The notes below the pieces were generated by a model. It worked only from the letters and a program-made list of their open reading frames with translations, ran no database searches and was not told the origin of the DNA. DNA of 46,962 nucleotides from Xylographa opegraphella (Eukaryota): positions 1-46,962 of the forward strand of contig JALDZX010000094.1 in NCBI GenBank assembly GCA_022813865.1, written 5' to 3'. Within the stretch, counting starts at the first letter, position 1. The number at the start of each line of letters is the position of its first letter. Of this stretch, positions 12,031 through 43,592 are shown one piece after another. The position numbers and the translations under genes were made by a program.

Positions 12031-15000
12031 CTTTTATTATATATAAATATCGAGATTTATTATTTAATAAAATTATTATCAAACAAAGTTTCGTTATTAA
12101 ATAGCAAACGAATACCGTTAATTGAAAATTATTCATTTGATTTTGTAATATTATTTATAAAAATAGTTTCGTTTTTTTTCCCCGAATAACTACGAAATTA
12201 GTTTTAAAATGATTATTTTTTTATTTAAATAAAATATACAACACGATCGTTTTATATGTTTTATTATATAAAAAAAATTAAAAAATTATAAATCGCAATG
12301 TTTTTTTATAAAATTTAATATACAACGTAGTTAATAAAGCTATAAAAATATTTAAAAACTTAAAATAAATTATAGTAAAACAAGATTAATAACTCGTGAA
12401 ATTAATTTTTTCGTAAAGAATTTATTAAAAAAAATTACGCTCGAGTTAAAATCCCTTAATTATTATTTTAAATTTAATGATTTAATAAATTTATTAAACT
12501 TAGAGAAAATTAAAGGTTTAATATATTTATTAATTATTGTATTTCTAATAAATATTTATTAATAAGTCATGCAATTGCGTTGAATTTGTTTTTTAAATTA
12601 ATAATAATGAACGTTAATATATTTAATACGTTTATAATACTTCGAATTATACAATAAATTGATTAATTTTTAATTATTTTCGATTACAATTAAATCTTTT
12701 AAGGAATATTTAATTATAATTTAATAAAAAATTGAATTTTTATAATTAATCTTTTTATATTTTTTATAAATCGTTATATATTCGACTTCGTAAATAAATA
12801 TCGTAATAATCTTTTATTTAATGATTATTTAATTAATCGGTTCGCCGGCTATTTTCAATAAATAATTATCTATAAAACATTAAATATTTACGTCGCTGGC
12901 GTAATCGTTATTAATTTATTTTCTATGAAAAAATTAATTTAATAAATTTTTTTTAAATTAAACGTTATTTTAATATAAACGGAAGTTTAACGTAACGCGT
13001 TTTAATTAAATTATTTAAAATTTAACGTAAATGAAAAAAATTCGAAATAAAAATACGATATTCCGTTAAATATTTATTATTAAACATATTAAAAATATAA
13101 TTTTTAATCAATATTTAATAACATTCTCGACGTCGGTTTATTTGATGAGTTTTTATAAAAACGCGTTAACGATTATAAATATAATTACGAAAATAATTTC
13201 TTTGTAATTATATTTTTCAAAATTTTATAAAACGTAATATTATTAATTTATATAAAAACGTTTTCGTTAAAAATGTATCAAATAATAATAATATTAAGGA
13301 AAAACTTCGATTTATTTAAATTCTTTATTTAAAATTTCGACGACAGTTAATTTTCTAATAATTAAATAACGACTAATATTTGGTTAAACAGTAATAAATT
13401 ATTAACGTATGTTATTATTATAATATCGTTTTTATTAATAAATAAAGCGAAATTTTTAAAATATTGCCGAAATTTTGGCTAGCGTAAATATTTAACGTTT
13501 TTAATATATTATATTTAATTAAATTATTCATATTTATATAAAAAAATTTAAGCTTTAAAATAAAAATTTCCCGGGCGGGATTTCGAAGCTCGTGAATTAC
13601 TCGATATAAAATTCTTTAATTATACTAATCTTTAAATAAATTATTTTAACGTTTATTTAGTAAATTAATAATTAAAATATAATTATCAAAATAAGTAAAA
13701 ATTGGTAAATAATAAATATAGTTATAAAAACGAAATTTTTAATATAATCGATTTCGCATTGTTGCCAAAAGTTTTTAACAATTTAACGATTTTTATATTT
13801 AAAAATTCTTTTCGAAAATTAATTTCAATATAAATATTCATTTGTTTTTGATAGTCATTCGGCTTTTAAATGAAAATTATTTTTATTTTTATTTTAAGCG
13901 TTATTAAACTATAGTATTAATTTTTTTTATAATAATTTATTATTCAAAAACGTTAATGTTGGCTATAATTTTCGCGTAAATTTTTAAAAAATATATTATT
14001 ATTTCTTTAATAAATCGAATTTTTTAACGTAAATGAAATCGAGTTATTTTAAAATCGAATTTTTAATAAAACTTATCAATCTATTTTTTCAATCTTTCAT
14101 CGAGTGGGTTATTGAAAAAAATATTATAATTATTATTATTATTATTAAAGTTGTTTATTTCGAGATTTACGGAATTTTTAAAATTATTTTAATTTAATTT
14201 TTCGTTATTGAGGCTTTTATTAAAGTTAAATTCGCTAAAAAAATGGAATTTAATAAAGGATTTAATATTGTTATAATATTATTAATAAAATGTTTAATTT
14301 CAATTTCGTCGTCCCTTTAATTATTTATAATATTTATTTTTTATTTTTGAGGTCGATTTCGAAGTCGTTATTAAATTTTCTGTTAATTTAATTATTTTAA
14401 ATTATTATTTTAATAAATTTAAAGACTTTAATCAAATTTAATCGCTAAATTTTATTAATATAAATTTAGCATATTTTTATAATACGATCGATATCGAGGT
14501 TTTATATTTAATAAATATTAACATTTTTATAATCGATTAAACAACGTAAAATTTTTTAAAATAATATTTGTCGCCGCTAAAATTCCTCGAATTTATAATA
14601 AATATAAATAAATAATTTAAAATTTTTTAATTAAATAAAATAAAATAACTCGTGAATTTATATTTTAAAAGGGGTTTTGCCGTGAATTACTCGTGTGAAT
14701 GATCGATTAATAATATAAATAACGTAGCGTAATGTTTTATTTTGAATTTTTTTTGCAGTTTGCTGTTAACGAATAACGCTTTAATTTATTTTATTAAAAT
14801 TTTATTTAGGCGCTGGATTATTTTATTTTAATAATAAACGTAAACGTCGATTTTAATAACGTTAATTTTAAATCCAATTTAAAATACGATTTTCAATTTT
14901 ATCGCGTATGATTTGCTTTTATCGTGGCGAATTCATTTAATTTTAGTTTTCTTTATTGTTTCATTCAGTGTTACGATCCTGCCTCTCATTAATATAGTTC

Positions 15001-15174
15001 GATTCGGGATTTGAATTGAATTCGTTAATAAATGAATAACAAGGCACGATAACAGGCTTATAATTCTTTAATAAATAATAATTTTCGTACAGCACTGTGT
15101 TGGAATCTAATAACTTAAAATTATAATATAAGTTAAATACGCTTTTTATAACAAAAGGAATTTTTATTTTATAT

Positions 15175-15489
15175 ATATTTTTTATATTTTTTATATTTTT
15201 TATATTTTTTATATTTTTTAGATTTTTTAGATTTTTTAGATTTTTTAGATTTTTTAGATTTTTTAGATTTTTTAGATTTTTTAGATTTTTTAGATTTTTT
15301 AGATTTTTTAGATTTTTTAGATTTTTTAGATTTTTTAGATTTTTTAGATTTTTTAGATTTTTTAGATTTTTTAGATTTTTTAGATTTTTTAGATTTTTTA
15401 GATTTTTTAGATTTTTTGGATTTTTTAGATTTTTTGGATTTTTTATATTTTTTATATTTTTTATATTTTTTATATTTTTTATATTTTTA
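15175..15489. repeat. 9-bp tandem array (TATTTTTTA/GATTTTTTA), about 35 units, inside the 3' LTR of A2
   Basis: Directly visible. The sister LTR has only about 4 degenerate units (~21502-21543). Confidence 0.95.
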
Positions 15490-15639
15490 ATGCTTTTATA
15501 ATCGAGGCCATAAAGGCAACGAACGCATCGAATTATAGTTTTTTTTAACCCCTGTTTTATACAGTATTAATTAAAATTTTATTACTAGCTCCCCCCGCCA
15601 GATTCTTGTTTCGGAAGAATTTTAGCAGTTTTTTTTATT

Positions 15640-16177
15640 ATACTTAAACGTAAATTATTTAATTCCCCTCGCCGAAAGATTCAGTCTATCGATATTCGTA
15701 AAAAAGGAGAATTTGCAATATATTCCTGCGATCGCTGTATTCAAAAAGGTAAATTATACGAAATTTTCGCAGATTTTGATTTTTACGCAAAATATATTAA
15801 AGTAAAAGTACGTTGTTTGTTAATTATTATCGATGCCGATAAAAGGGTATTCAAAAAAAGAAACGTCGTTTACGCAAAAAAATTGTTAAATTAAAAATTA
15901 AATTTAAAACGATAATATTTAAAATTATTATATTAATGGCCCGCGAAGCTGCAAAATTAATTACTGAAAAATTGATTTTTAAACCTTAAGGTCGAGGGTC
16001 GCGAAATATTTCAACAGGAAATATTCAATATTAAGGCTTTAAAAGAAAATAAAAAACGTAGGCCCGTGCTTTTTACCAGCGATTCTTTTGAGGGGTTTTT
16101 TTTAATTCTTGCCTTTTAAAATTTTAAATTTTTTTAGCGAAACTTTCGAAGAAGCTTTTAGCAATCCTCAAGGCTAG
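15640..16177 (+). pseudogene. Antisense accessory ORF relic of Gypsy A2 (basic N-terminus, Zn2Cys6-like motif, coiled coil)
   Basis: ATA(ATG?) LKRKLFNSPRRKIQSIDIRKKGEFAIYS C-DR-C-IQKGKL-Y-EIFADFDF-Y-AK-Y-IKVKVR-C (motif 15727-15816, 30 codons). Followed by a charged helical segment with frameshifts. Confidence 0.68.
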
Positions 16178-18348
16178 TAAATAATTCTTAAATATTATCT
16201 AATTCTGGGTATTTATTTTACTTAATTAAATAGTTTTAATCTTGCTGTTCCAGAATTTTTTCTTCTTCGAATTTTTTTTATTGTATCGAAAGGTTATTTG
16301 TAGTAAAATACTTAAGTCTGCTAATTTTAGCAAACAAATATAAAACAATAAATATACTTTTATATTTTTTTCGACAGATTAAAAAGGTAAATTAACTAAT
16401 GTATTTACTTTATTTAATTAAAAATGATTCGATTATAATATAATGGAGTTTTAATATTTCAATATTTGCTAATTATTCATTTTTTTATGAAAAAATATAC
16501 TTTATCCCTCTTTTTTAGCCAAGGTTCATTTTTTATTACTGTATTTTGCAGCAGTATCTTTATTATTATTTCATTAAATTTTTTTAATAGCGTTTCGTAC
16601 GTATTTTTTAAATTTTTAATTAATATTATTACCCTGTTAGCGTTAAGTCTCGAGTTTTTATTTTTAAATAATTTTGAATATTGCCTCGTATTTACGAAGA
16701 ACGGCGATATTTTAGTTATTACAAATTATTTACCGTTTAATGCTAATTTTTAAAAGGCAATAATAATATTTCATTATTTTATTTAAAATTAATAAAATAT
16801 TTAAAATATACCTTTAAATTTTAATTTATTCTTTCTATTTAACCGTTTATTTGTAAATAATAAACGGTTGATATTTTTAATTTGACTTTTAATTTAAATA
16901 TTAAAGTTTTCCAGAAATTTAGCGTAAATAATTTATTCCGATTAAATATAATTTCTGCTAAAGATTTATCATTTTTTATTAATTTATTTAATAAAAAAAG
17001 CTTATTACTTTATTTAAAATACTTAGTAAATTTATTTTTAAATATTATTATTAAATTATATTTCAATTTTATAGCTAAGTTTTCTAATTTTAATAATTTT
17101 GGAATAAAGTTAATCGAGATTTGTTTCTACGGTTTTTTTAAAATATTCGAAAATTTAAATATTTTCGTATACTGTATGCTTTGCTAACTTATTTTTTTGT
17201 TAAAATATATATTTTTAATATATTCCTTTACAAACTTTTTTATGTTTAGGAATTTATAGTTTTTTTTATAAATTCTATTGTTTTGATAACTTTTGAATAT
17301 TTATTCATTAAATTATCGTAATAATATTTAAATATTTTTTCTGCTAACAGTTCTATTAAATCTTTAGTAATCGTTTTTATCTCGAAAGTTATAATTTATT
17401 TTGCAAACATCAAAACTCTACTATTATTTTTTTGTAGCAATACTTTATTTATTAATTTTTTATTTATTAAATCTTTTTTTCTGCTAGGCGCGTTTATTTT
17501 TCTATTTTTTAATGTATGTATAACTTTGAATTTATCCTATTTTAAAAGTTTTCCTTATTTTACTTATTTTTTATAAAATATTTTCGTCGTCGTAAAATTA
17601 AACAGATCTTTATAGTCTATATAAATTGTAAGCTCGAAGTAATTTTTTGTATATACTCTTTAATTTTAAATAATCGTTACTATAGCGAGTAATATTTCAT
17701 CGTAAATATTATAATTCTATTTTACTTATAATATTTTTTTAAATAATATACGATAAAGTACTATTTTATATTTTATATTTGCAGCAGATATATACCTATT
17801 ATTAAATTTAACACGTTTGTTTTTATGTTTACAGATTTTTTTACCTGAAATATTATTAATATTAATAATTTTATACAATTTCTTTTTAAATTGTTAAAGA
17901 CTCGTTGTTGGTTTAAATTATATATTTTTATATATTAAATTCGTCAGCAATATCGCCTTTTTAAGTAATCTCTAATAAAAATTCTATTAAAATTCGCAAA
18001 CTTTAAAATTTTTAAGTTTTTATTTTTACTACTGTTGATTAAGGTTATTTAAATATAGTTTGTATTTTTTCTGAGTTTATTTTAATTTTGTTTTTACTAA
18101 TTATAAATTTTAAAAAAATCTATTTCGTTTTTATAAAATTTATATTTCTTTGATTCAAAAAGCAATCTCGTTTTTTTAAAATATATAAATATTTTCTATA
18201 CGTATATTACATATTCTTTTGGTTATTTAGAGTAAATAGATATATTCTTTAAATAAATTACTATCGTTAAATTTAAATGCGCTTTTAATACGTTGTTGAT
18301 CAATAATTAACAAATAGTTAATGCATTTATTAACTCAAAAGGCATAAT

Positions 18349-18615
18349 TTAATATTTATGATATTTATATTTACTTCGAAACGTAATTTTCCATTTTTCG
18401 TCTTTTTCTATTTTAATTGAATTATATACGCCCTTAAGATTAAGCTTGATAAAAAAAATTACTTTATTAAATTTATTTCGTATTTCGTTAATTTTTAGTA
18501 GCGAATATCGATTTTTAATAATAATATCGTTTAGCTTTCGATAATTAATGTAAAAATTTAAACTTTCGTTCTTTTTAGATATAAATACTACGAGATATTT
18601 TATAAAAAATTTCAA
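18349..18615 (-). pseudogene. Gypsy reverse transcriptase fragment
   Basis: FISKKNESLNFYINYRKLNDIIIKNRYSLLKINE...KLNLKGVYN...WKITFRSKY matches the FVPKKDGSLRLCIDYRKLN..KNRYPLP..KLDLKGAY..WKTAFRTRY consensus. Confidence 0.95.
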
Positions 18616-19709
18616 TTCGCGTATAAATCCTTTTTTTTAAATTTTTGTTAATATATTTTCGAAGTTCTCGAAGTTCTCGAAGTTCTCTTTTTGATATATT
18701 ATGTATAAATTTAAATATTGATTTTTCCCCTAATTAAAGATTAATTTCGTAATCCCAAAATTAATGCTTAAATAAGGCGTTAAACTCTTTCTTTTTTTAA
18801 AAAATTATATTTACGTTTTATATTTTTCAGGGATGTTAAAAGGTGCGTTATTTTTTTAAACTCTAATTTATTTCGCTCTGTTAATTTTTGCTGATGCGTA
18901 TCGAGCCGAATCTTTAAATAAAAATATTTTTATTCGAATATGAAATTTTTATAATTTTGATCGGTTTTCGATTTTTTTTATTATCATTCTTTATCGATAT
19001 ATAAAATATATATCAATAACGCGGTTAATATGTTTTTTAGTAAATATTTCTTTATTTTAGTTTAGAAATATATTGTACTTAATTTACCAAAATAAAATTA
19101 AAATAATATAGTATTTAATTATATTTATTATACTAAAAATGATTTTTTATGATATTAATAAATAGCGATAAAAATGGTTTTATATGTCGTTCGTTTTTCC
19201 CCAAAATAACCCGTCGACTATTATTATTCAAATTTATTTTAAAATTAAAAACTCGAAGCCGTATCTCTCCGCGAAAGTACTAAATCTATAATTAAAATCA
19301 ACTTTAGTATTTAATAGTACGGTTATTTGACAATTGTTTATTTTAATCGAAATTTTTATAAAATTTATACAGTCTGGTTTTTTAGAATATTTTAAAATAT
19401 ATTATATTATTTTTTATATATTTTTTTAACTATATAAAATTACTTTCTTTCTGTTCAAAATAGCCGTAAATTTCTTTTATTCTTTTGTATATCACGTATT
19501 ATCCATAAATATATATTACTATAGTAAGTTTCCGCAGTTTTTTTTTCGAACAAATTTTATATACAATAAAATTATGGCAAATTTTTTATCTATATTCTAA
19601 AAATTATAAATGTTTTCGTTTTTTTTAAATGCCAAAAGCATTTATTCCAGATTTAAATACTATAATAGGCTTTCCCTGTATAATTATTATGTTTATAGTT
19701 TTTTAATAA

Positions 19710-19900
19710 ATGTTGCAGTATATATTTATATAAATACTACTGTATATTATACTATAATATAAATGTTCTGGGTTTACTCGATAATTCTATATATTTATTT
19801 GTTTAATACATGTTGCAGTATATATTTATATAAATACTACTGTATATGATACTATAATATAGATATTCTGGGTTTACTCGATAATTCTATATATCCATTT
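19710..19900. repeat. 100-bp-period tandem duplication within A2
   Basis: TGTTGCAGTATATATTTATATAAATACTACTGTATA.. occurs at 19711 and 19811. The region is single-copy in A1 and A3. Confidence 0.9.
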
Positions 19901-20492
19901 TTTAAATATATATCGACGTTGTTATTTTATTAAATTTTTATAAATTTAGTTTTTTAAATTATTTAGCTCGATATTTTATTTCTCGAGATTTTTTTCGATT
20001 TATAAATTATTAATACTTCAATCGTTTTTTTCTTTATTATTAATTTTTATCTAAAAGTTATTTTATAAATTAATTTTTTCGCGCATTCTATTAATATTAG
20101 CTTTGTCGTTTAAAGTTAAAATAAATTTCGTATTTTTTTTGTATAAAAAATTTTCTTTTTCTAAGTTTTGATTTCACCGGAAATTTTAAATATATACTTA
20201 TTTATAATTTAAATATTTGTTTTTCGATCGATAATTTTTAGCGATATAGCCGATTTTTTATATATATAATATTTATTTATTTTTTCTCCGGGAATGCTAT
20301 TTCCTATATTTTTATTTTTATTTTTTAAATACGTTTATTTTTATTGGTATTATTTTTTTTAGAAATTTAGCATTTTATAATTTGTTTTTTATTTTATTGC
20401 CGTTTTTTAATAATTGATTTTTGCTGCGTTTTCTATTTCGTATCTGCGTTTTATAATTCTTTATATAATTTATCGTCGATTTTTATATATTT

Positions 20493-20683
20493 TATTAAAA
20501 GGCACGTGTATTTGGATCAGGGCGGGGGCAACAGTAATCGTATATTCGGTGAAGTTCGGTATAGGCCACGAGAACGTGACATATACCTCCTACGCTAGTA
20601 CTGAACTACGCTATACATAAATAGAACTAGCCTTGAGGTATTCCTTTATGCCTACCAGCAAGTGATGCTTCTACCAATTGACA
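20493..20683. mobile_element. 191-bp solo-LTR-like insert, largely not RIPed, in the gag region of A2
   Basis: TSD TATTT (20488-20492, 20684-20688). Ends TATTAA (probably mutated TGTCAA)...TTGACA. Absent from the homologous site in A1 (~5368). Confidence 0.85.
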
Positions 20684-21272
20684 TATTTCTCGATTATTTG
20701 ATTAATAATTTTAATTACGGCATTAATTTTTATTAGTTTATTTTTAATCGAATTTTAAATCCTTTGCGATATATCATATTTAACGCATCGTCGTTTTATT
20801 TCGTTTAAATTGCGAATTATTAAAATCGAGTTAAATATTCCGCGCAAAATTCTTTTTACTTAAAATACTACATAATTTATATCGCTATATTTTTTTTGTT
20901 AAATAATTTTAAAAAAAATTTAATTTCGATTTTAAACGTCGCGAAGCTTTTGAATTACTTAGAATTTTCGTTATTAAAATCTTCAAAATATTTTTTAAAA
21001 TAAAAAGCAATCTATTTTTAAACTTGTTCTCGGATATATATAATAACAAAAATAATCTTTTTAACTTTAAAATACTGTTTCCCTAAATCCCGAAAAATGT
21101 ATTTATTTTCATAAATTAATTTTTTAAATAATCTTTATTTTTTAATACTTATCGACTATTTTTATTTTAACGCGATTATTTTCTTTTATAGTATTTCTTT
21201 TATTGCCTTTTATAATATTTAGAATTAAAGTTAGTCGTGCTTTTAATACACTTATTTTAAAAATATCTAAAA

Positions 21273-21630
21273 TATTACGATTCTGCCTTTTATTAGTATA
21301 GTTCGATTCGAGATTTAAATTAAATTCGTTAATAAATAAATATAAAAATACGGTAACAAGCCTATAATTCTTTAATAAAAAGTAATTTTTGTACAGTATT
21401 GTATTGAAGCCTAGTAATTTAAAGTTATTATAATATAAATTAAAAACGTTTTTTACAACAAAAGGAATTCTTTACTTCATATAGAAATTCTATTTTGAAA
21501 TTATTTTTTATATTTTTTATGTTTTTTATGCCTTTCATGCCTTCGTGATCGAGGCTATAAAAATAACAAACGCATCGAATTATAGTTTCTTTAACCCTTG
21601 TTTCACACAGTATTAATCAGAATTTTATCA
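21273..21630 (-). repeat. 5' LTR of Gypsy A2
   Basis: Direct repeat of 14969-15584 without the expanded array. Confidence 0.92.
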
Positions 21631-22140: not shown

Positions 22141-25100
22141 AAGGGAACAACCACGTAAGAAGTAAAGCAAATTCCTGAAATCCAGTCATAATACAGTTGA
22201 TTGAATTATTATACGTATAAGAATAGCCGTTTTTACGTTTTTTATACGCTTTTTGCAATAAAAAACGTAAAATATTTATAATATTATAATTTCGACGCGT
22301 CGAGTTAATTATATTAATAATACAAGATACGTATTTACTTTAAATAATCGATACGTTATTAAAAGAATAAAAAATATATAAAAGCTTTAAAAACTTTGTT
22401 TAAAAATATATTCGTTAAAAATTATTTTATTAAATTTTAAAATAGCGTCGAATTCACAAAATTTAAAAAAACAAAAAGTTAATTATATAAATAGTTTTTT
22501 TTAAATAACTAAATCGTTAATTTATTTAAAATAATTAAATAAAATCTTTTATTAATAATTTTTAAATATTTAATAAAGTCGGCCGAGCTTCGATATACGT
22601 ATTTAAATAACGATAATTATAAAGAATAAAGGATTCACGCTCAATTAAAGCTTTTTCAATAAAAAATTTAAAAAAATAATAAAAACAATTGAAACCGCTA
22701 AAAATAAAGATTAAATAAAAAAATATAAACCGGATTTAATTATTACAAACCTTAAAAATAAAGAAATTAAAAATAAAAAATTGATAATATTTATAAAACG
22801 TTTTTTAGCGATAACGTAACGATTTACGCGATAAACATAAATATAAAGAACAAATTTAAAAAATTTAAATTAAACTAAAGAATTCTCCGCGTTTGCGTAA
22901 ATTCAACGCCGGAAATTCCTTAACTTAATATTTAAAATTCAAATTATATTGAATATTGAAAATCAAGAAACTTTGAAAAAATTATAAAAGAAACAAAGAA
23001 AATTATCCAGGCCTAAAAATTCTTAGGGTAACCTGATTTACAAAAAACATTTAAAAACGATAAAATTATTAATTAATTATTATAAAGTAGTTAACGAAGC
23101 GATAATCAATTATATATTACATTATAAAATCATATTAAAAACACGAATGTAAATATTTCCAAAAGAAAAAATAAAAAAAATTTAAAAAATATAAAAAATA
23201 AAAAAAGTATAAAAAATAGAAAAAATAGAAAAAATATAAAAACTATAAAAAATATAAAAAATATAAAAAATATAAAAAATATAAAAAATCGAAAAAAATA
23301 GAAAAAATATAAAAACTCTAAAAAATATAAAAAATATAAAAAATCGAAAAAATCTAAAAAATAGAAAAAATATAAAAAATCTAAAAAATAGAAAAAATAT
23401 AAAAAATCTAAAAAATATAAAAAATATAAAAAATCTAAAAAATAGAAAAAATATAAAAAATCTAAAAAATATAAAAAATCTAAAAAATCTAAAAAATATA
23501 AAAAATATAAAAAATATAAAAAATATAAAAAACATAAAAAATATAAAAAATATAAAAAATAGAAAAAATAGAAAAAATTTAAAAAATTTAAAAAATAGAA
23601 AAAATATAAAAGCGTAAATACTGCGTAATATACGCGAAAAAATTAAAATTAAAAATTATAAATAAACGCGCGTTCAATAAAAAAATCAATATTATTTTTA
23701 AAAATAAACTAAAACCTTTTATAAATTATTATATAAACGTACAACGCAAGGAGACTTGGCGATATTTAATAATTAAAATTCTATATTTAAGGAAATAATG
23801 GAAAGTACGAGTTTTATAAATTAATAATAATAAATAACGTCAGGCAAGCGCAAAAAACTCGACTTTAAAATTATAATAAAATTATTTAAAATAAAATATA
23901 ATTTATTTTAATTATTATAAAAAAATTCGAGCAATTCGTATTTTTAGCGTTGTTTCATAAAAACGAATAATAATTTAAATAATTAAATAAAACTTAATTT
24001 TACGAAATTTTAATAAATACATATTTAAACTTACGAATATTATAATATAATATGTAAAAACGATTAAACGCAGTTCAAATAATATTATTAAATAATTTAT
24101 TGATCGAAAATATAAATATATTAACGATATAAAAGCCGAAACGTAATCTCGACCCTATAAAATCCTATAATATAAATAAACAAAATTTTTATTTCATTAA
24201 AAATATATATTTATATAAATAAAAAATCGATATAAATATATAAAACGTAAACTCGATAAAAAACGATTTTATAATATTAAAATTGTTATTTAAATTAGCG
24301 CTAAACTAAAATATAAAATATATTTATACAATATAGATAATTTATTTTTCTTGTTAATAATATTTATAAAAAGGTTTTTAATTTTACTTAAATTAAATAC
24401 TAAATTATAGTAAAAAAATCGTAGTAAAAGAATTTAATTTATATTATTCATATTTAAAAACCGGGCTATTGAAATAATTGCAATACATTTATTTAATTTA
24501 TAAATATTGCTACGACGGCGAAAGTTTGATTATTATTCTTATTAAAATTAATTATAAAATAAATAGATTAATAAAAAAACTATTAATTTAATATTTACGA
24601 ACGAATAATTTATTAAAAGAATTAATAAAATATTAAATTCAAACAGATTTATATTATAATTTAAATTATTTATTAGTTTTAATAAAAACTAATTTACGTA
24701 TAGCCAGCGCCGCGATGATATAATAAAAATTAAAAAAAATCGATTTGAATAAATTTTCGAAAATCTTGTAATAAAAAATTAAAAATTTTATTAAAGACTT
24801 TAAAGCTTTAATTACAACCGAAAAAAATAGAAATCATATAATTAAATTAAAAAGCGATTTAAAAAGCGATTTAAAAAGCGATTGAAATAATAATTTTATC
24901 AATTAAATCAATAATAATAAATCATTCGAATTTACTAAAAATATTTTGATCATATAAATATAACAACGCAATAACGCTGGCGAAAGAATAATTTAATAAT
25001 TAAAAATTATATTTATACGAAAATACGTAAAACCCGTTTTTAATAAAAATCGACGTAAAAAATAAAATAATAATAAAGGTTAAAAAAATATTTTTCAGTA

Positions 25101-28919: not shown

Positions 28920-29470
28920 TATTAAATTTATAAAATATAAATATAAATTTACAAAATATAAATATAAATTTACAAAATATAGAATTTAATTTAATAAAAA
29001 TAAAAATTAAAAAAATATTTAAAGCGAAACCCTGAATATATTTTATATTAACTATATTTAAAAGATTCGAAAAAAATATATAAAAAAGGCCCGCAGGGCC
29101 TTCGTTTATTTTTTTTAAAAACTTTTATTCTTGAGTAACCATAATCGCCTCGAGGGCCCACTTCGAGGGCGCCCTCGAGGACTCGAGCTTGTGTGGTGGA
29201 TTCGGGGCGGGTCTTTTGGGCGCTTTTTGATTTGGAGCTTCCTTCCTCACGCATCTGCATATAGCGATAGAGCAGCAGAGCCACAACGGCAGTTNNNNNN
29301 NTTTTTTTCTTCTTTTCACTCTCTGTCGGACGGAAAGTGACCTTATTCAGAAAAGACTTGACCTAGCTGCGACCCCGATCCAATCCTTTTGCCTACCCCT
29401 TTGCCTACTCAACTAGGCTGCTGCGGACTTCCTGCGAATTCCTTTACACTTGTAGACTTCCATTTCAATA
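28920..29470 (-). repeat. 5' LTR of Copia copy 2, interrupted by a 257-bp insert
   Basis: Homologous to 11785-12030 after removing 29192-29452 and a short local duplication at ~28925-28980. Confidence 0.85.
29192..29448. mobile_element. 257-bp solo-LTR-like insert, not RIPed, with 4-bp TSD
   Basis: TGTGGTGGATTCG...CGAATTCCTTTACA flanked by CTTG (29188-29191, 29449-29452). Contains 7 Ns. Confidence 0.85.
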
Positions 29471-37128: not shown

Positions 37129-37240
37129 GGGTTAATTCGATATCGTAATAATTGCAAATGAATATATATATATATATATATTAAACGTAAAATTTTTAAA
37201 TTTTAAATTTAAAAAAATTAAAAAATTCGACGTTAAATAT

Positions 37241-40200
37241 TGATAAGGTTCTGACCAATACTGTGTGAAATAAAAATCGAGGAAACTTTATTTCGAATGC
37301 CTCCTCTGCCCTTCTGCGAAGGCATGGAAGGCACAATCCTTTTATTTTAATCGCCTTTCTGCGAAGGCATAAAAAACATTTTAAAACAGAATTTTTATAT
37401 AAAATAAAGAATTCCCTTTATTATAAAAGGCGTATTTAAATTAAATTATAATTTTAAACTACTAGGCCTCAATACAATATTATACAAAAATTATTATCTT
37501 TTAAAAATTATGAATTTATTACCGTATTTTCTATTAACGAATTTAATTTAAATCCCTAATCGAATTATATTAAGAAAAAACAGAATCGTAATACTTTAAA
37601 TATTTTTAATATAAATATATCAAGAGCACGAACAAACTCAACCCCAAATATTATAAAAAATAACAGAAAGAATACTATAAAAACCGCGTTAAATTAAAAA
37701 GATTTTATAAATATAAAAAAATAAAAACTATCTAAAAAACTGACTTATACAAATGGACATATTTTTCGGGTTTTAGGGGAACAATGTTTCAACGTAAAAA
37801 AATTACTTTTTGCTATTACGTCTATATAAAAATAAGTTTAAAAATAAGTTATTATTTATTTTAAAAAATATTTTAAAAATTTTGATAATAAAATTTTTAA
37901 ATGGTTAAAAAGCTTCGCGACGTTTAAAACCGAAATTAATTTTTTTTAAATTATTTAATAAAAGAAATATGGCTATACGAATTATATAGTATTTTGAATA
38001 AAAAGAATTTCGCGCGAAATATTCAACTCGATTTTAATAATTCGTAATTTAAACGAAGTAAAACGACGATGCCTTAATTATAATATACCGCAGAAAATTC
38101 AAAAACTTGATGAAAAATAAGTTAATAAGAACTAATACCGCAATTAAAATTATAAATTAAATAATCAAAAAATGCATATAATTCAACGATAAATTATATA
38201 GAAAAGCTATAAAACGCAGATATAAAACCGAAGGCGCAGTAAAAATTAATTATCAAAAAAGCGATTTTAAAGTAAAAAGAAAATTATACAAAACGCCAAA
38301 CCCCTATAAATCAATATCAATGGAAATAAAAGTATTTTAAAAATAAAAATAAAAATATAAAAAATAATATTCCTAGGGAAGAAACACAGAAGTTATTTAT
38401 TATATATATAAAAAAATCGGCCATATTGCTAAAAATTATCGGTCGAAAAACAAAACATGAAATAAGAAATAAATATATATTTAAAATTTTCGATAAAACC
38501 GAGATTTTAGAGAAAACAATTAAATGTTTTTATATAAGGAAAAGAATACGAAATTTACTCTAATTTTAAACGATTAGGTTAATTGTAACGGCGTGTTACA
38601 TGGCACCTTAACAAGTGATAGACGGAACGGGACTAAAGCGCGTCCGGGACTCAGGCTAGTTCGAAAGCGGTTAGGAGTCTTGGCGTTAGCACTGTTTATT
38701 TTAACTCCTACGTGTATTACTAAACTTGCTTCCTTATATTATTCTAGGTTGAAATCGCTCACCTATAGCTGTGGTTCTAGGCCTGCTTTTCTGGTGAGAT
38801 AGCGAGCTGTAACATTAATATTAGCGAAACGCGCGAGAAAATTAATTTATAAAATAACCTTTAAATAAAAATTAACAACAACGAAAAAAACGATTTAAAT
38901 ATTGATAACTTGCCAATCGAAAAAAATCTCGAAATACAAAATATGCAGTTAAATAATTAAAAAAAGTAAATTTATAAAAAACTTAACGAGCCAACAACGC
39001 CGATATATACTAAAAAAAATAGATAAAATTATCGAGTATACCCAGAATATTTATATTGCAATATCATATACAGTAGTATTTATATAAATATATACTGCAA
39101 AATTTATCAGAAAAACCACGAGTACAATAATTATAGAAAAAACTTATTATAATATTTAAATTTAAATAAATACTTTAAAAATAATTTCCCTAAATACTTG
39201 AAAGAAAAACGAAAATATTTATAATTTTTAGAATATATATAAGAATTTTGCCGTTATTATAAACAAAACCCGTTCGAAGTAAAAAAACTGCGAAAAACCT
39301 ACTATAACAATGATATTTTTATAAAAAATATATATAATATACAAAAAAATTAAAAAAATTTACGACTACCTCGAACAGAAAAAGAAATAATTTTATATAT
39401 TATAAAAAATATATATATAAATTAATATAATATACTTTAAAATACGCTAAAAGAAATCAGGCTGTATAAATTTTATAAAAATTTCGATTAAAATAAACGA
39501 TTATCGAACAATCATATTATTCAATACTAAAGCTAATTTAAATTATATATCTAGTACTTTCGTGGAGAGCTGCGGTTTTAAATTTTTAACTTTAAAATAA
39601 ATTTAAATAATAATAGTCGACAGGTTATCAAAAAAAACGAACGGTATATAAAATCACTTTCTGTCGTTATTTATTAATACTATAAAAATAATCTTTAGTA
39701 TAATTACTATAATTAGATACTATAGTATTTTAAATTTATTTCAATAAATTAAATACAACGAATTTTTAAATTAAATTGAAAACATTTACTAAAATTCATA
39801 TTAATCGCGTTATTAATATATGTTTTATATATTAATAAAAAACGGTAATAAAAAATCGAAAATCGATCAAATTTATAAAAATTTTATTTTCGAATAACAA
39901 GAATTTTACTCAAGAGTTCGACTCGATACGTACCGACAAAAATTAATAAAGTAAGTTAAGTTAAAAATTAAAAAAACGCAACGCACCTCTTGACATCCCT
40001 AAAAAATATAAAACGTAAATGTAAATTTTTTTAAAAACACAAAAAAGGTTTAACGCCTTATTTAGGCACTGATCTTAAAACTGCGAAATTAATCTCGAAT
40101 TAGGGAAAACCCCAATATTTAAATCCAAATATAATATATTAAAAAAAGAACTTCAAGAACTTCGAAAATATATTAATAAAAATTTAAAAAAAGAATTTAT

Positions 40201-43200
40201 ACGCGAATTAAAATCTTTAGTAAAATACCTCGGAATATTTATATTTAAAAAAACGGAAGCTTGAAATCTTATATTAATTATCGAAAGTTGAAAAATATTA
40301 TTGTTAGAAATTGATATTCGCTATTAGAAATCAGCGAAATACGAAATAAATTTAATAAAGTAAAAAATTTTATTTAATTTAATCTTAAAAACGTATATAA
40401 TTAGATTAAAATAAGAAAGGCGAGAAATAAAAACCGCATTCCGAGCTAAATACAAATATTAAATTATATTTTTTGAATTAATTAATATACTAGCTATTTA
40501 TTAGGTATTAATTAATAACGTATTAAAAACGTATTTAAATTTAACCATAATAATTTATTTGAACGACATTTATTTACTCGAAATTAGCAAAAAAAAATAT
40601 AAAGTATATACAGAAAATACTTATATGCTTAAAAAACGAAATTATTTTTTAAATTAAAAAAATATAAATTCAGCAAGAGCGAAGTAGCCTTTTTAAAATT
40701 TATAATTAATAGAAACGAAATTTAATTTTTTTTTAAAAAAAATACGACTAATATTTATATAGTTTTAACTAATAATAGCAAAAAAGGTTTTAAAACTTCT
40801 AAAGTTTACGAACTTGAATAAAACTTTTATTAAAGATTATTTTAAAAAGGCGATATCTCTGACGAATTTAATACATTAAAATATAAATTTCAAATAGAAT
40901 TCGAAGCAAAAACGGGCCTTTAACAATTTAGAAAAATTGTATAAAATTATTAGTATTAATAATATTTTAAATTAAAAAATTTGTAAAAATAAAAACAAAC
41001 GTATCGAATTTAATAATAAATTTATATTTACCGCAAATTCAAAATAAAAAATAGTACCTTATTGTATACTATTCAAAAAAAAATTGTAGTAAAAAAAACT
41101 ATAATATTTATAATAAAAAACTACTTTTTATAGTAGCATTTATTTAAAATTGAAAAATATATATATAAAAATTTGCTTCGAGTTTATTATTTATATAAAC
41201 TATAAAAATCTGTCAAATTTTACGATAATAAAAATGCTTAATAAGAAATAAATAAAATAAGTAGAACTTTTAGGACAGTATAAAATTAAAATTATACATA
41301 TACCCAAAAAACAATAGAAAAACGAATATATTTAATAAAAAATTTAATGAATAAAAATCAATAAATGGAGTATTGCTACGAAAAAATAATAATAATTATT
41401 TTATTTTTACAAAATAAATCGCAACTTTCGAACTAAAAACGATTACCAAAGATTCAATAAAACTGTCAGCAGAAGAATTAATGAAATATTATTATAATAA
41501 TTTAATAAATAAATTTTCAAAAGTTATGAAAACAATAAAATTTATTGAAATAATTATAAATTCCCAAATAGAAAAAAATATGTAAAACAATATATTAAAA
41601 AATATATACTTTGTTAAAAAACAAATCAGCAAAACATGCGATATACGAAAATATTTCATTTTCGAATATTTTAAAGAAATTATAAAAATAAATTCTAATT
41701 AATTTTATCATTAAACTACCAAGGTCAGAAAATCCAATTAAAAAATAGAAATATAATTCAATAATAATATTTATAAATAAACTTATTAAGTACTCGATTA
41801 TTATATTTTTAAAGAAATATTTATACTAAAATCACTGGCTTTATTTCTATTAAATAAGCTAGTAAAAATTATGAATTTTCAGCAGAAATAATATTTAATC
41901 GAAATAAATTATTTACGTTAAATTTCTAATAGAAAATTTTTTAAATTAAAAGTTAAATTAAAGTTGTTAATCGTTTATTATTTATAAATAAACGATTAAA
42001 CAGAAAGAATAAACCAAAAATCAAAAATATATTTTAAATACTTTATTAATTTTAAACCAAATAATCGGGTATTATTATTACTTTTAAAACAATTGGCACT
42101 AAACGATAAATAATTTATAACAACGGGAATGTCGCCGTTTTTCGCAAATACGGGGCAATATTCGAAATTATTTAAAAAAAAAAGGCCGGGACCTAATACT
42201 AACAGGGCAATAATATTAGTCAAAGATTTAAAGAATACGCACGAAACGCTATCGACAAAAATTTAACAGAATAATAATAAAATTACTACTATAAAATGTA
42301 ATAATAAAGAATGGGTCTTAACTAAAAAAAGGGAATAAAATATACTTTTTATAAAAGTTTCTAATAATTAATAAGAATCGAAGCGAAAAGCTCGATTATA
42401 TCAAAGTCGAATCGTTTTTAATTAAATAAATTTGAAAATTAACTAATTACCTTCTCAATCTGCCAAAAAATACAAAAATATATTTAGTATTTTTTTATTA
42501 AAACCAGCGAACGCGAGTACTTTATTTTAAATAGTTTTTTAATATAATAAAACAAAATAAAATTCGAAATAAAGAAATGTTAAAATAGCAAGGTCAGAAT
42601 TATCTGGTCAAGCAAAAAAAATTCAGAATTAAATAATATTTAGGAACCACTTACCAGCCTTGAAAATTACCAGAAACTTTTTTAACAGTTTTATTAAATA
42701 AAGCAAAAAATCTTAAACGAAAAAGCTTTCAAAGTTTTTAAAATAAGAATTTAAAAGAATATAAAAAAACCTCGAAAAAATCGTTGGTAAAAGTTTTCGT
42801 TTTTTAACGTTTATTATTTCTTAAGGCTCCGATGTTAAATCTTTTACGTTAAATATTTCCCGTTTTTCGTTTTGAATATTTAAAAGCCGACTTTATTTAC
42901 AGTCAAGGGCTTGCTAAGCGTAATTTAAACTTTTTTTAATTTAATTATTTAACGTTTTATTTTATTTTTTTGTTTTTTCAAATTACGACGATCGATATTT
43001 ATAATAATTAAAAAGTAGCGGGCTGTAACGGCAATATAATTTACGCAGAACTTTTATTTCGAAAATTCTTTGTAAATTAAATTCTCCAAGGATATATCGT
43101 AAGCTTTTTTATTAGAAATACTGTACGATTAAACCTTTCGGCGAAAAGCACAAAATAAATTATATTTTAATATAATATAAAAAAATTATTAAAATTCTTT

Positions 43201-43592
43201 TGAAAGTAAAATTCTGGCGGGGGAAGTTAGTAATAAAATTTTCATTAATATTAGATAAAATAAAAGTCGAGGGAACTTTATTTTAAATACTTTTTTTACC
43301 CTTCTGCGAAGGCATAAAAGCCATAACTCTTTTATTTTAATCGCTTTTCTGCGGAGACATAAAAGGCATTTTAAAATACCATTTTTATATAAAATAAAGA
43401 ATTCCCTTTATTATAAGAAACGTATTTAATTTACATTATAATTTGAAAATATTAGGCATCAATACAATACTGTACGAAAATTATTATTTTTTAAAGAAAA
43501 TTATAAGCCTGACCGTGCTTTTTTATTATTTATCAACGAATTCACCCCAGATCTTCAATCGAACTATATTAAACAGAAGCAGAATCGTAATA
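37241..43592 (+). mobile_element. Ty3/Gypsy family A copy 3 (divergent subfamily), full length, RIP-inactivated
   Basis: LTRs 37241-37593 and 43231-43592. PPT GGCGGGGGAAGTTAG (43216-43230). Gag knuckle YYIYKKIGHIAKNY (38398-38439). Protease FNTKA (FDTGA) ~39520. YLNDI ~40556. Chromodomain NYLVK..*EPLTSLEN ~42598-42668. Flanks AATAT/AATAA. Confidence 0.95.
38584..38814. mobile_element. 231-bp solo-LTR-like insert, copy 2, not RIPed
   Basis: TG..CA ends. Perfect TSD TTAAT (38579-38583, 38815-38819). Near-identical to 6114-6344. Confidence 0.95.

Follow-up and report, generated by a model that had tools for sequence, protein, structure and literature searches.

Does the interval between the end of pol and the 3′ long terminal repeat (LTR) of a fungal Ty3/Gypsy-like retrotransposon conceal a gene of its own, read from the strand opposite gag-pol? 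The question is raised by contig JALDZX010000094.1 of Xylographa opegraphella (assembly GCA_022813865.1), of which we analysed positions 1 to 46,962 of the forward strand (hereafter the window). Repeat search and alignment of the window identified one LTR retrotransposon in three copies (family A): A1 (~1-6500) and A2 (14971-21628), with pol on the minus strand, and A3 (~37200-43500), with pol on the plus strand. A preliminary description, made from the DNA letters, had proposed that in each copy this interval holds the remains of an antisense gene for a protein of about 180 residues with a Zn2Cys6-like cysteine cluster and a coiled coil. We find that the hidden gene is real and that it is dead in the window, and its antisense arrangement has published precedent. 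That this element once carried a functional antisense protein-coding gene is, in our judgement, very probable. We also lean, with less assurance, towards the whole reading, in which an antisense accessory gene killed by repeat-induced point mutation (RIP) would have had a nuclear, zinc- and DNA-binding ancestral product.

An inactivated gene opposite gag-pol

In A2, the gene occupies 15640-16191 on the plus strand and comprises 183 codons plus a stop (16189-16191), matching both the length first proposed and the 171-202 residues of the intact relatives described below. Its start codon lies 58 nt from the edge of the 3′ LTR, and its reading direction is towards pol. Because the gene reads on the opposite strand between the polypurine tract (PPT) and the pol end, gene and pol converge with overlapping ends, the final ~20-30 codons of the gene lying tail to tail with the chromodomain-like end of pol. 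The copy is inactivated: the start, at the position first proposed (15640), reads ATA CTT AAA where the relatives have M-P-K, eight internal stops interrupt the frame (five TAA, two TAG and one TGA), and Tyr occupies three of the six Cys positions. The N-terminal part (15640-15726, plus strand) contains the basic stretch already noticed upstream of the cluster; it reads ILKRKLFNSPRRK...IRKKGEFAIYS, corresponds to the relatives' pattern MPK[RA]K...RR[RK]K...AM[HR]P, and may have been a nuclear localisation signal, which would point to a nuclear role.

The cysteine cluster follows directly (15727-15816, plus strand), where A2 translates as CDRCIQKGKLYEIFADFDFYAKYIKVKVRC; the equivalent site in A1 (539-628, plus strand) translates as CDRCIKKSKLYEIFINFDFYAKYIKVKIRC. 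As had been pointed out, both read C-x2-C-x6-Y-x8-Y-x2-Y-x6-C in 30 codons. The two copies have the same codons at the six positions (TGC, TGT, TAC, TAC, TAT and TGT), and each of the three Tyr codons, at positions 3-5, is one G>A step from Cys. On its minus strand, A3 translates as ...FCVNYIAVTARY... and still carries Cys (TGC) at the fourth position, which is TAC in A1 and A2. Downstream of the cluster, A2 retains the remnant of a long charged helix with five stops (15832-16090, plus strand; REIFQQEIFNIKALKE, compared with RKMFAQEMFNIEALEE in the relative P0003). The A1 copy of the gene (452-1013, plus strand) is likewise inactivated and loses the frame after about codon 85, and the divergent A3 copy (42640-43173, minus strand) has a 14-nt deletion over the first CxxC and a frame change. 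In all three copies, the gene lies between pol and the 3′ LTR, opposite gag-pol and in the same place relative to pol.

Whether this frame was a gene is settled by intact relatives; with only three copies, a deRIP consensus has too little depth to decide. When 1.84 billion representative proteins were scored with a profile built from the three window frames (cut-off E ≤ 0.001), four of them matched: P0003 (E 1.3e-11), P0004 (1.8e-8), P0005 (8.8e-5) and P0006 (1.6e-4). A second profile, built from these four and run over proteins of 46-354 residues, added P0007, P0008 and P0009 (E 4.5e-35 to 1.6e-21). The intact relatives span 171-202 residues (177 in P0003), and P0008 has 105. P0003 and P0008 retain all six Cys as C-x2-C-x6-C-x8-C-x2-C-x6-C, with the same spacing as the window copies and with Cys at the three positions that are Tyr in A1 and A2, as had been predicted for the ancestor. 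P0005 and P0007 have Cys at five of the six positions and Tyr at the remaining one; P0004, P0006 and P0009, with Tyr or Trp at Cys positions, look like damaged copies. The complete relatives P0003, P0005 and P0007 are open over their full length and have MPK at the start or close to it; the identity of P0003 to P0005, P0007 and P0008 is no more than 33-35%.

The same relatives can be aligned directly to the DNA of each copy (tblastn). Residues 3-148 of P0003 match A2 at 15646-16092 in a single frame of 151 columns containing five stops (36% identity, E 2e-20), and residues 3-80 match A1 at 458-691 (E 5e-14). P0004 matches A3 in two frames, 43122-42928 and 42881-42663 (E 1e-9), so that the gene remnant claimed for this copy is recovered at the protein level.

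Other searches returned little. With the window frame alone, a word-index search of proteins had no match, Pfam had none, and PDB sequences gave one match at E 1.1. The ESM Atlas placed the window frame with unnamed ascomycete clusters alone (0.88-0.89); for the family, the nearest clusters there are sets of 62-210 members annotated as ascomycete 'hypothetical proteins'. A word search with P0003 matched P0003 alone, and no relative was found in metagenome scans with two family alignments or in viral-contig scans with a family alignment and with P0003. The gene family has so far escaped annotation: Pfam has no entry for it, and gene callers leave it unnamed.

The damage to the A2 antisense frame runs in the direction of RIP. 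At least three of the four intact-looking relatives share a residue in 77 columns. A2 keeps that residue in 28 of these; in 21 its codon can be derived from the conserved residue by C>T/G>A only, in 1 by the reverse changes only, and in 27 by neither. Among the 49 changed columns, therefore, 21 are explained in the RIP direction only and 1 in the reverse direction only. Three Met>Ile (ATA) replacements, three Cys>Tyr replacements and changes of Pro to Leu or Ser are among the RIP-type differences, and TAA or TAG accounts for seven of the eight internal stops. The gene thus becomes readable through very heavy RIP once the direction of mutation is considered. Sequencing reads from a DNA run, matched at 80% likeness, revealed further diverged copies of the element with mostly transition differences, and none of the matches listed had A>G at the three Tyr codons.

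A deRIP consensus of the three copies had been expected to reopen the frame and restore the cysteines. It did so in part: the first 88 codons are open and the fourth Cys is restored, and nine stops remain while the other two Tyr do not revert. The pol-strand frame of the same consensus has 10 stops against these 9. Two other stop-free plus-strand frames lie antisense to the A2 integrase region (16439-16753, 104 codons; 16864-17187, 107 codons); their translations are of low complexity, they have no counterpart in the alignment of the relatives, and they are probably a by-product of strand composition. Because pol-strand stops are similarly few and long antisense frames occur inside pol, open frames within the window prove nothing, and the argument for the coding strand rests on the relatives. 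Six two-codon residues (the Cys positions) in exact register, a common start and open frames, all kept at 33-35% identity, are unlikely to be caused by pol-strand conservation alone.

How often would such a cluster appear by chance? We relaxed the motif to Cys or Tyr at the six positions, requiring three or more genuine Cys and no stop. In the window, it occurs at the A1 and A2 sites only, which count as one event because both belong to the same element. Markov simulations of the window (150 runs per order) produced it in 0, 2 and 1 runs at orders 1, 2 and 3, respectively, and ~0.01 occurrences are expected per simulated window at the higher orders. Since the motif was chosen after the fact, this estimate would not alone have carried the claim of a gene.

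Retention of the interval in all three copies, a further part of the earlier proposal, holds at the DNA level for A1 and A2, which are 76% identical over ~750 nt; A3 matches only the two flanks (blastn) and has the 14-nt deletion over the first CxxC. In the accessory-gene region (15773-16069), A2 is much nearer to A1 than to A3 (transversions 2-3% versus 10-20%, reaching ~20% between A2 and A3 in this middle part of the gene). In pol (16330-21170), the copy closer to A2 is A3 (3-6%, versus 4-16% for A1). This pattern suggests that the 3′ module was exchanged between sublineages by recombination, or that it evolves fast.

The putative zinc cluster, the predicted helix and the proposed ancestral product

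Zn2Cys6 clusters have the spacing C-x2-C-x6-C-x5-12-C-x2-C-x6-8-C, into which P0003 and P0008 fall (x2, x6, x8, x2, x6). Zn_clus (PF00172) is the top Pfam match in three of the seven relatives, P0008 (20.5 bits, E 5.2e-4), P0005 (14.4 bits, E 0.041) and P0003 (11.5 bits, E 0.33). A conserved linker, S-L-[IY]-[IV]-[ST]-D-A-D, joins the cluster to a long helix, which AlphaFold2 models at residues 65-147 of P0003 (pLDDT 83-99) and 39-104 of P0008, mostly with pLDDT > 90. The helical segment anticipated downstream of the cluster is thus present in both models, and its remnant persists in A2.

Structure comparison returned matches of the helical type. Foldseek against the PDB found nothing at E ≤ 0.001, and VIA-align wide returned coiled coils and long helices only (Z ~7, over residues 35-105). 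Because the long helix filled these searches, the fold comparison covered the helix only. A family profile run against PDB sequences gave weak coiled-coil-type matches only and no Zn2Cys6 protein. Complex prediction for two copies of P0003 residues 25-150 stayed below its mark (0.31 against 0.32).

In our preferred reading, a genuine accessory gene, inactivated by RIP, is present in each of the three family A elements. Its ancestral product would have been a protein of ~180 residues with a basic N terminus (MPKRK...RRK), the cluster C-x2-C-x6-C-x8-C-x2-C-x6-C, a linker and a helix of ~80 residues. The succession of cluster, linker and dimerising helix characterises the DNA-binding end of Gal4-type factors, which makes nuclear zinc and DNA binding the most likely mechanism. 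The Zn2Cys6-like reading is plausible, and the protein may have been nuclear, bound two zinc ions, contacted DNA and dimerised through its helix. An antisense transcript would have started at a putative promoter in the 3′ LTR or in the 58 nt just inside it, and the product may have acted on the transcription or chromatin of the element itself or of the host; autoregulation or anti-silencing, as first suggested, would be a speculative role.

Several points weigh against this reading. All window copies are dead, and the window gives no evidence of a present function. The relatives are known here from protein sequences and are only presumed to lie inside Gypsy elements. All of them fall below the 21-bit gathering score of Zn_clus (20.5 at best), and P0004, P0006, P0007, P0009 and the window frame have no Zn_clus match at all. 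In the best-scoring stretches, moreover, the second half of the model is what matches the first half of the cluster. Because the gathering score is missed, we use the term Zn2Cys6-like and stop short of assigning the protein to Zn_clus; of the identity first proposed, the six-Cys spacing of P0003 and P0008 stands and the Pfam assignment does not. Gal4-type clusters carry basic, DNA-contacting residues between the second and third Cys ([RK]-x-x-[RKHQ] in the PROSITE pattern). The residues after the second Cys of the family (I-x-K/H-G/A) appear, by eye, unlike this pattern, with a single K or H between the second and third Cys in P0003 (C-I-E-K-G-L-V-C) and P0008 (C-I-N-H-A-K-E-C). AlphaFold2 models the Cys part of both proteins at low confidence (pLDDT 51-68), and the hydrophobic a/d periodicity of the helix is modest (0.48-0.56 versus 0.33-0.37 overall). 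Finally, the divergence between A2 and A3 in the gene, which fits a fast or swapped module, would also fit weak constraint.

The alternative that survives best accepts a real, element-borne gene whose product served another step, such as bringing the pre-integration complex into the nucleus, binding RNA or protein, or recruiting a host factor. The missed gathering score and the unusual residues after the second Cys would both fit such a role, and plant antisense open reading frames (ORFs), as summarised in passages of PMC7264820, have nuclear localisation and several possible roles, none of them established. Against it, the six-Cys spacing is exactly that of a binuclear cluster, a linker and a long helix follow directly, and Zn_clus leads the Pfam matches of three of the seven relatives. 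We consider this alternative possible, if rather unlikely.

A second alternative is that the gene was a passenger, an N-terminal piece of a host Zn2Cys6 factor gene captured by an ancestor of the element and without a role there. Zn2Cys6 factors are abundant in ascomycetes, as is generally known, gene capture by LTR elements has been described (passages of PMC7264820), and A3 differs strongly from A2 in the gene region. Captured genes, however, typically occur in one or a few copies (PMC7264820, same passages), whereas this gene is present in all three, including the divergent A3. Relatives at 33-35% identity keep full-length frames with the same start and the same ends, and no longer host-type protein turned up within the size range searched. 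We therefore regard a passenger as improbable.

That there was never a gene, the motif being due to chance or mirroring a coding C-terminal extension of pol and the relatives being mis-called ORFs, might be argued from the near-equal stop counts of the two strands, the other long antisense frames inside pol and the status of the relatives as automatic predictions without names, but is very improbable given the rarity of the motif in simulations, the one-frame alignment over 151 columns, the RIP-direction damage relative to the antisense frame, and the exact Cys spacing, MPK start and full-length frames that persist among distant relatives.

The element copies and the rest of the window

The preferred reading, a RIP-killed antisense accessory gene, is set in fungal DNA that is RIP-mutated throughout the window. 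GC is ~20% (~0.13-0.30 per kb). CpA and TpG each stand at 0.54-0.56 of expectation and CpG at 3.6, and the ratio (CpA+TpG)/(ApC+GpT) is 0.67; this dinucleotide pattern is the signature of RIP in an ascomycete.

A2 provides the clearest anatomy of the element. Its 5′ LTR (21275-21628, minus strand; ~354 nt) was delimited by LTR-LTR comparison (blastn). Its 3′ LTR (14971-15582, minus strand) is 81-84% identical to the 5′ LTR (blastn) and is extended by a 9-nt tandem array. The PPT, GGCGGGGGGAGCTAG (15583-15599, minus strand), was read from the sequence and adjoins the 3′ LTR at the edge given by the LTR-LTR alignment. The RNase H part of pol matches RT_RNaseH_2 (PF17919) at 17716-17913 on the minus strand in A2 (E 0.0038, 17.7 bits), which fixes the orientation of A2 gag-pol, and at 40941-41168 on the plus strand in A3 (E 4.2e-6, 27.2 bits), opposite the A3 gene remnant; both scores lie below the 29.8-bit cut-off. 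Integrase-like and chromodomain-like motifs are visible by eye 3′ of RNase H. In A2, the chromodomain-like pol end reads FEEEKILEQQD.NYLIK.NKYPELDNI.ELFTSLEDC.KLLRKFR (16137-16271, minus strand; judged by eye against the general consensus), and Pfam detected a Chromo domain in none of the three copies. Pfam matches in pol are few, and RIP has degraded the element proteins. Assignment to the Ty3/Gypsy chromoviruses is tentative, drawing on the LTR pair and PPT, the sub-threshold RT_RNaseH_2 matches in two copies, and the integrase and chromodomain recognised by eye.

Several further features were seen in and between the copies. The 9-nt array at 15177-15488 (ATTTTTTAG, ~35 copies) makes the A2 3′ LTR longer than the 5′ LTR. 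A second array at 23166-23611 (AAAAAATAT, ~49 copies) is its reverse complement, at 89% over ~327 nt. A 231-nt stretch occurs twice at 98% identity, at 6114-6344 (on the 5′ LTR side of A1) and at 38584-38814 (inside the gag of A3), with G+C visibly above that of the surrounding RIP-damaged DNA. It has no Rfam or tRNA match and may be a short, young SINE- or MITE-like insertion spared by RIP; Rfam and tRNA scans of the whole window likewise found nothing. Runs of N are present at 1528-1557 (30 nt) and 29295-29301 (7 nt). The former sits in the integrase region of A1 between G+C-richer flanks and may be an assembly gap within an insertion.

An AAT microsatellite-like array of ~500 nt (9706-10203) gives rise to several spurious long ORFs on both strands. 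An inverted repeat of 363 nt (6552-6914 and 12691-13053; 79% complementary, 5.8 kb apart), with a second pair of arms at 6906-7198 and 12406-12698, may represent two opposed copies or the ends of another element.

Comparison with known systems

The closest precedent by position is brtn, an antisense gene in Boty, a Gypsy element of Botrytis (Zhao et al. 2011, Virology 417:248, as cited in PMC8365987, PMC7264820, PMC4227169 and PMC5987419). Passages of these papers place brtn between pol and the 3′ LTR, in Sclerotinia as well (PMC7264820), describe a Boty-like element that has a pol with a CHROMO domain together with brtn (PMC4227169), report a Monilinia transcript similar to BRTN (PMC5987419), and note that brtn is absent from the current B05.10 annotation (PMC8365987). 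Neither 'brtn' nor 'additional ORF' occurs in two supplementary files of PMC8365987.

Compared by position and description rather than by sequence, brtn and the window gene are alike as extra genes between pol and the 3′ LTR, antisense to gag-pol, in ascomycete Gypsy elements. The Boty-like pol ends in CHROMO, and the pol end in the window is chromodomain-like by eye; brtn, too, occurs in several species. The two differ in that the citing passages mention no zinc cluster or coiled coil for brtn. The elements differ in LTR length as well, ~354 nt here against ~600 nt in Boty. If brtn proves to be a member of this family, the gene has already been described, and only the reading of its domains is new. 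In our literature search, we found no description of a zinc cluster in the antisense gene of an LTR retrotransposon, and a search for three peptide motifs of the family found none of them. The recognisable layout of the intact relatives turns an unknown ORF into a concrete, testable functional hypothesis.

Plant elements offer a second parallel. Antisense ORFs between pol and the 3′ LTR are described in passages of PMC7264820 for maize Grande (gene23), rice RIRE2, Silene Retand and Phaseolus PvRetro13. According to these passages, their functions are unknown, they lack clear database similarity, most copies of a family contain them, some of the encoded proteins are nuclear, and the Grande ORF is preceded by a promoter of its own. 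The window gene shares their position and orientation and is found in all three copies in the window. Unlike it, the plant ORFs belong to other element lineages, we claim no sequence relation to them, and those passages report no Cys cluster.

In its predicted domain layout, the family most resembles the Gal4-type Zn2Cys6 factors (PF00172), which are not known outside fungi: it shares with them the six-Cys spacing and, after it, a short linker leading into a long helix, and occurs in fungi too. Unlike those factors, it is only ~180 residues long, lacks a middle homology or activation region and is encoded by a retrotransposon; it appears not to keep the basic residues that follow the second Cys, and its Zn_clus scores are sub-threshold.

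HBZ of HTLV-1 is a bZIP protein that is antisense-encoded and transcribed from the 3′ LTR. Its likeness to the window gene is an analogy of design, in which a reverse-transcribing element encodes, on the minus strand of its 3′ end, a small, dimerising protein of DNA-binding type; fold and host are unrelated, and the window gene is known from sequence alone. An antisense promoter in the HTLV 3′ LTR is mentioned in passages of PMC7264820. By extension, and tentatively, ascomycete chromoviruses of several lineages might each carry a minimal Gal4-like factor of their own, expressed antisense from the 3′ LTR in the manner of HBZ and steering the transcription or chromatin of the LTR. We hold this broader proposal to be possible rather than probable; if true, it would offer a possible evolutionary link between mobile elements and the large Zn2Cys6 repertoire of their hosts.
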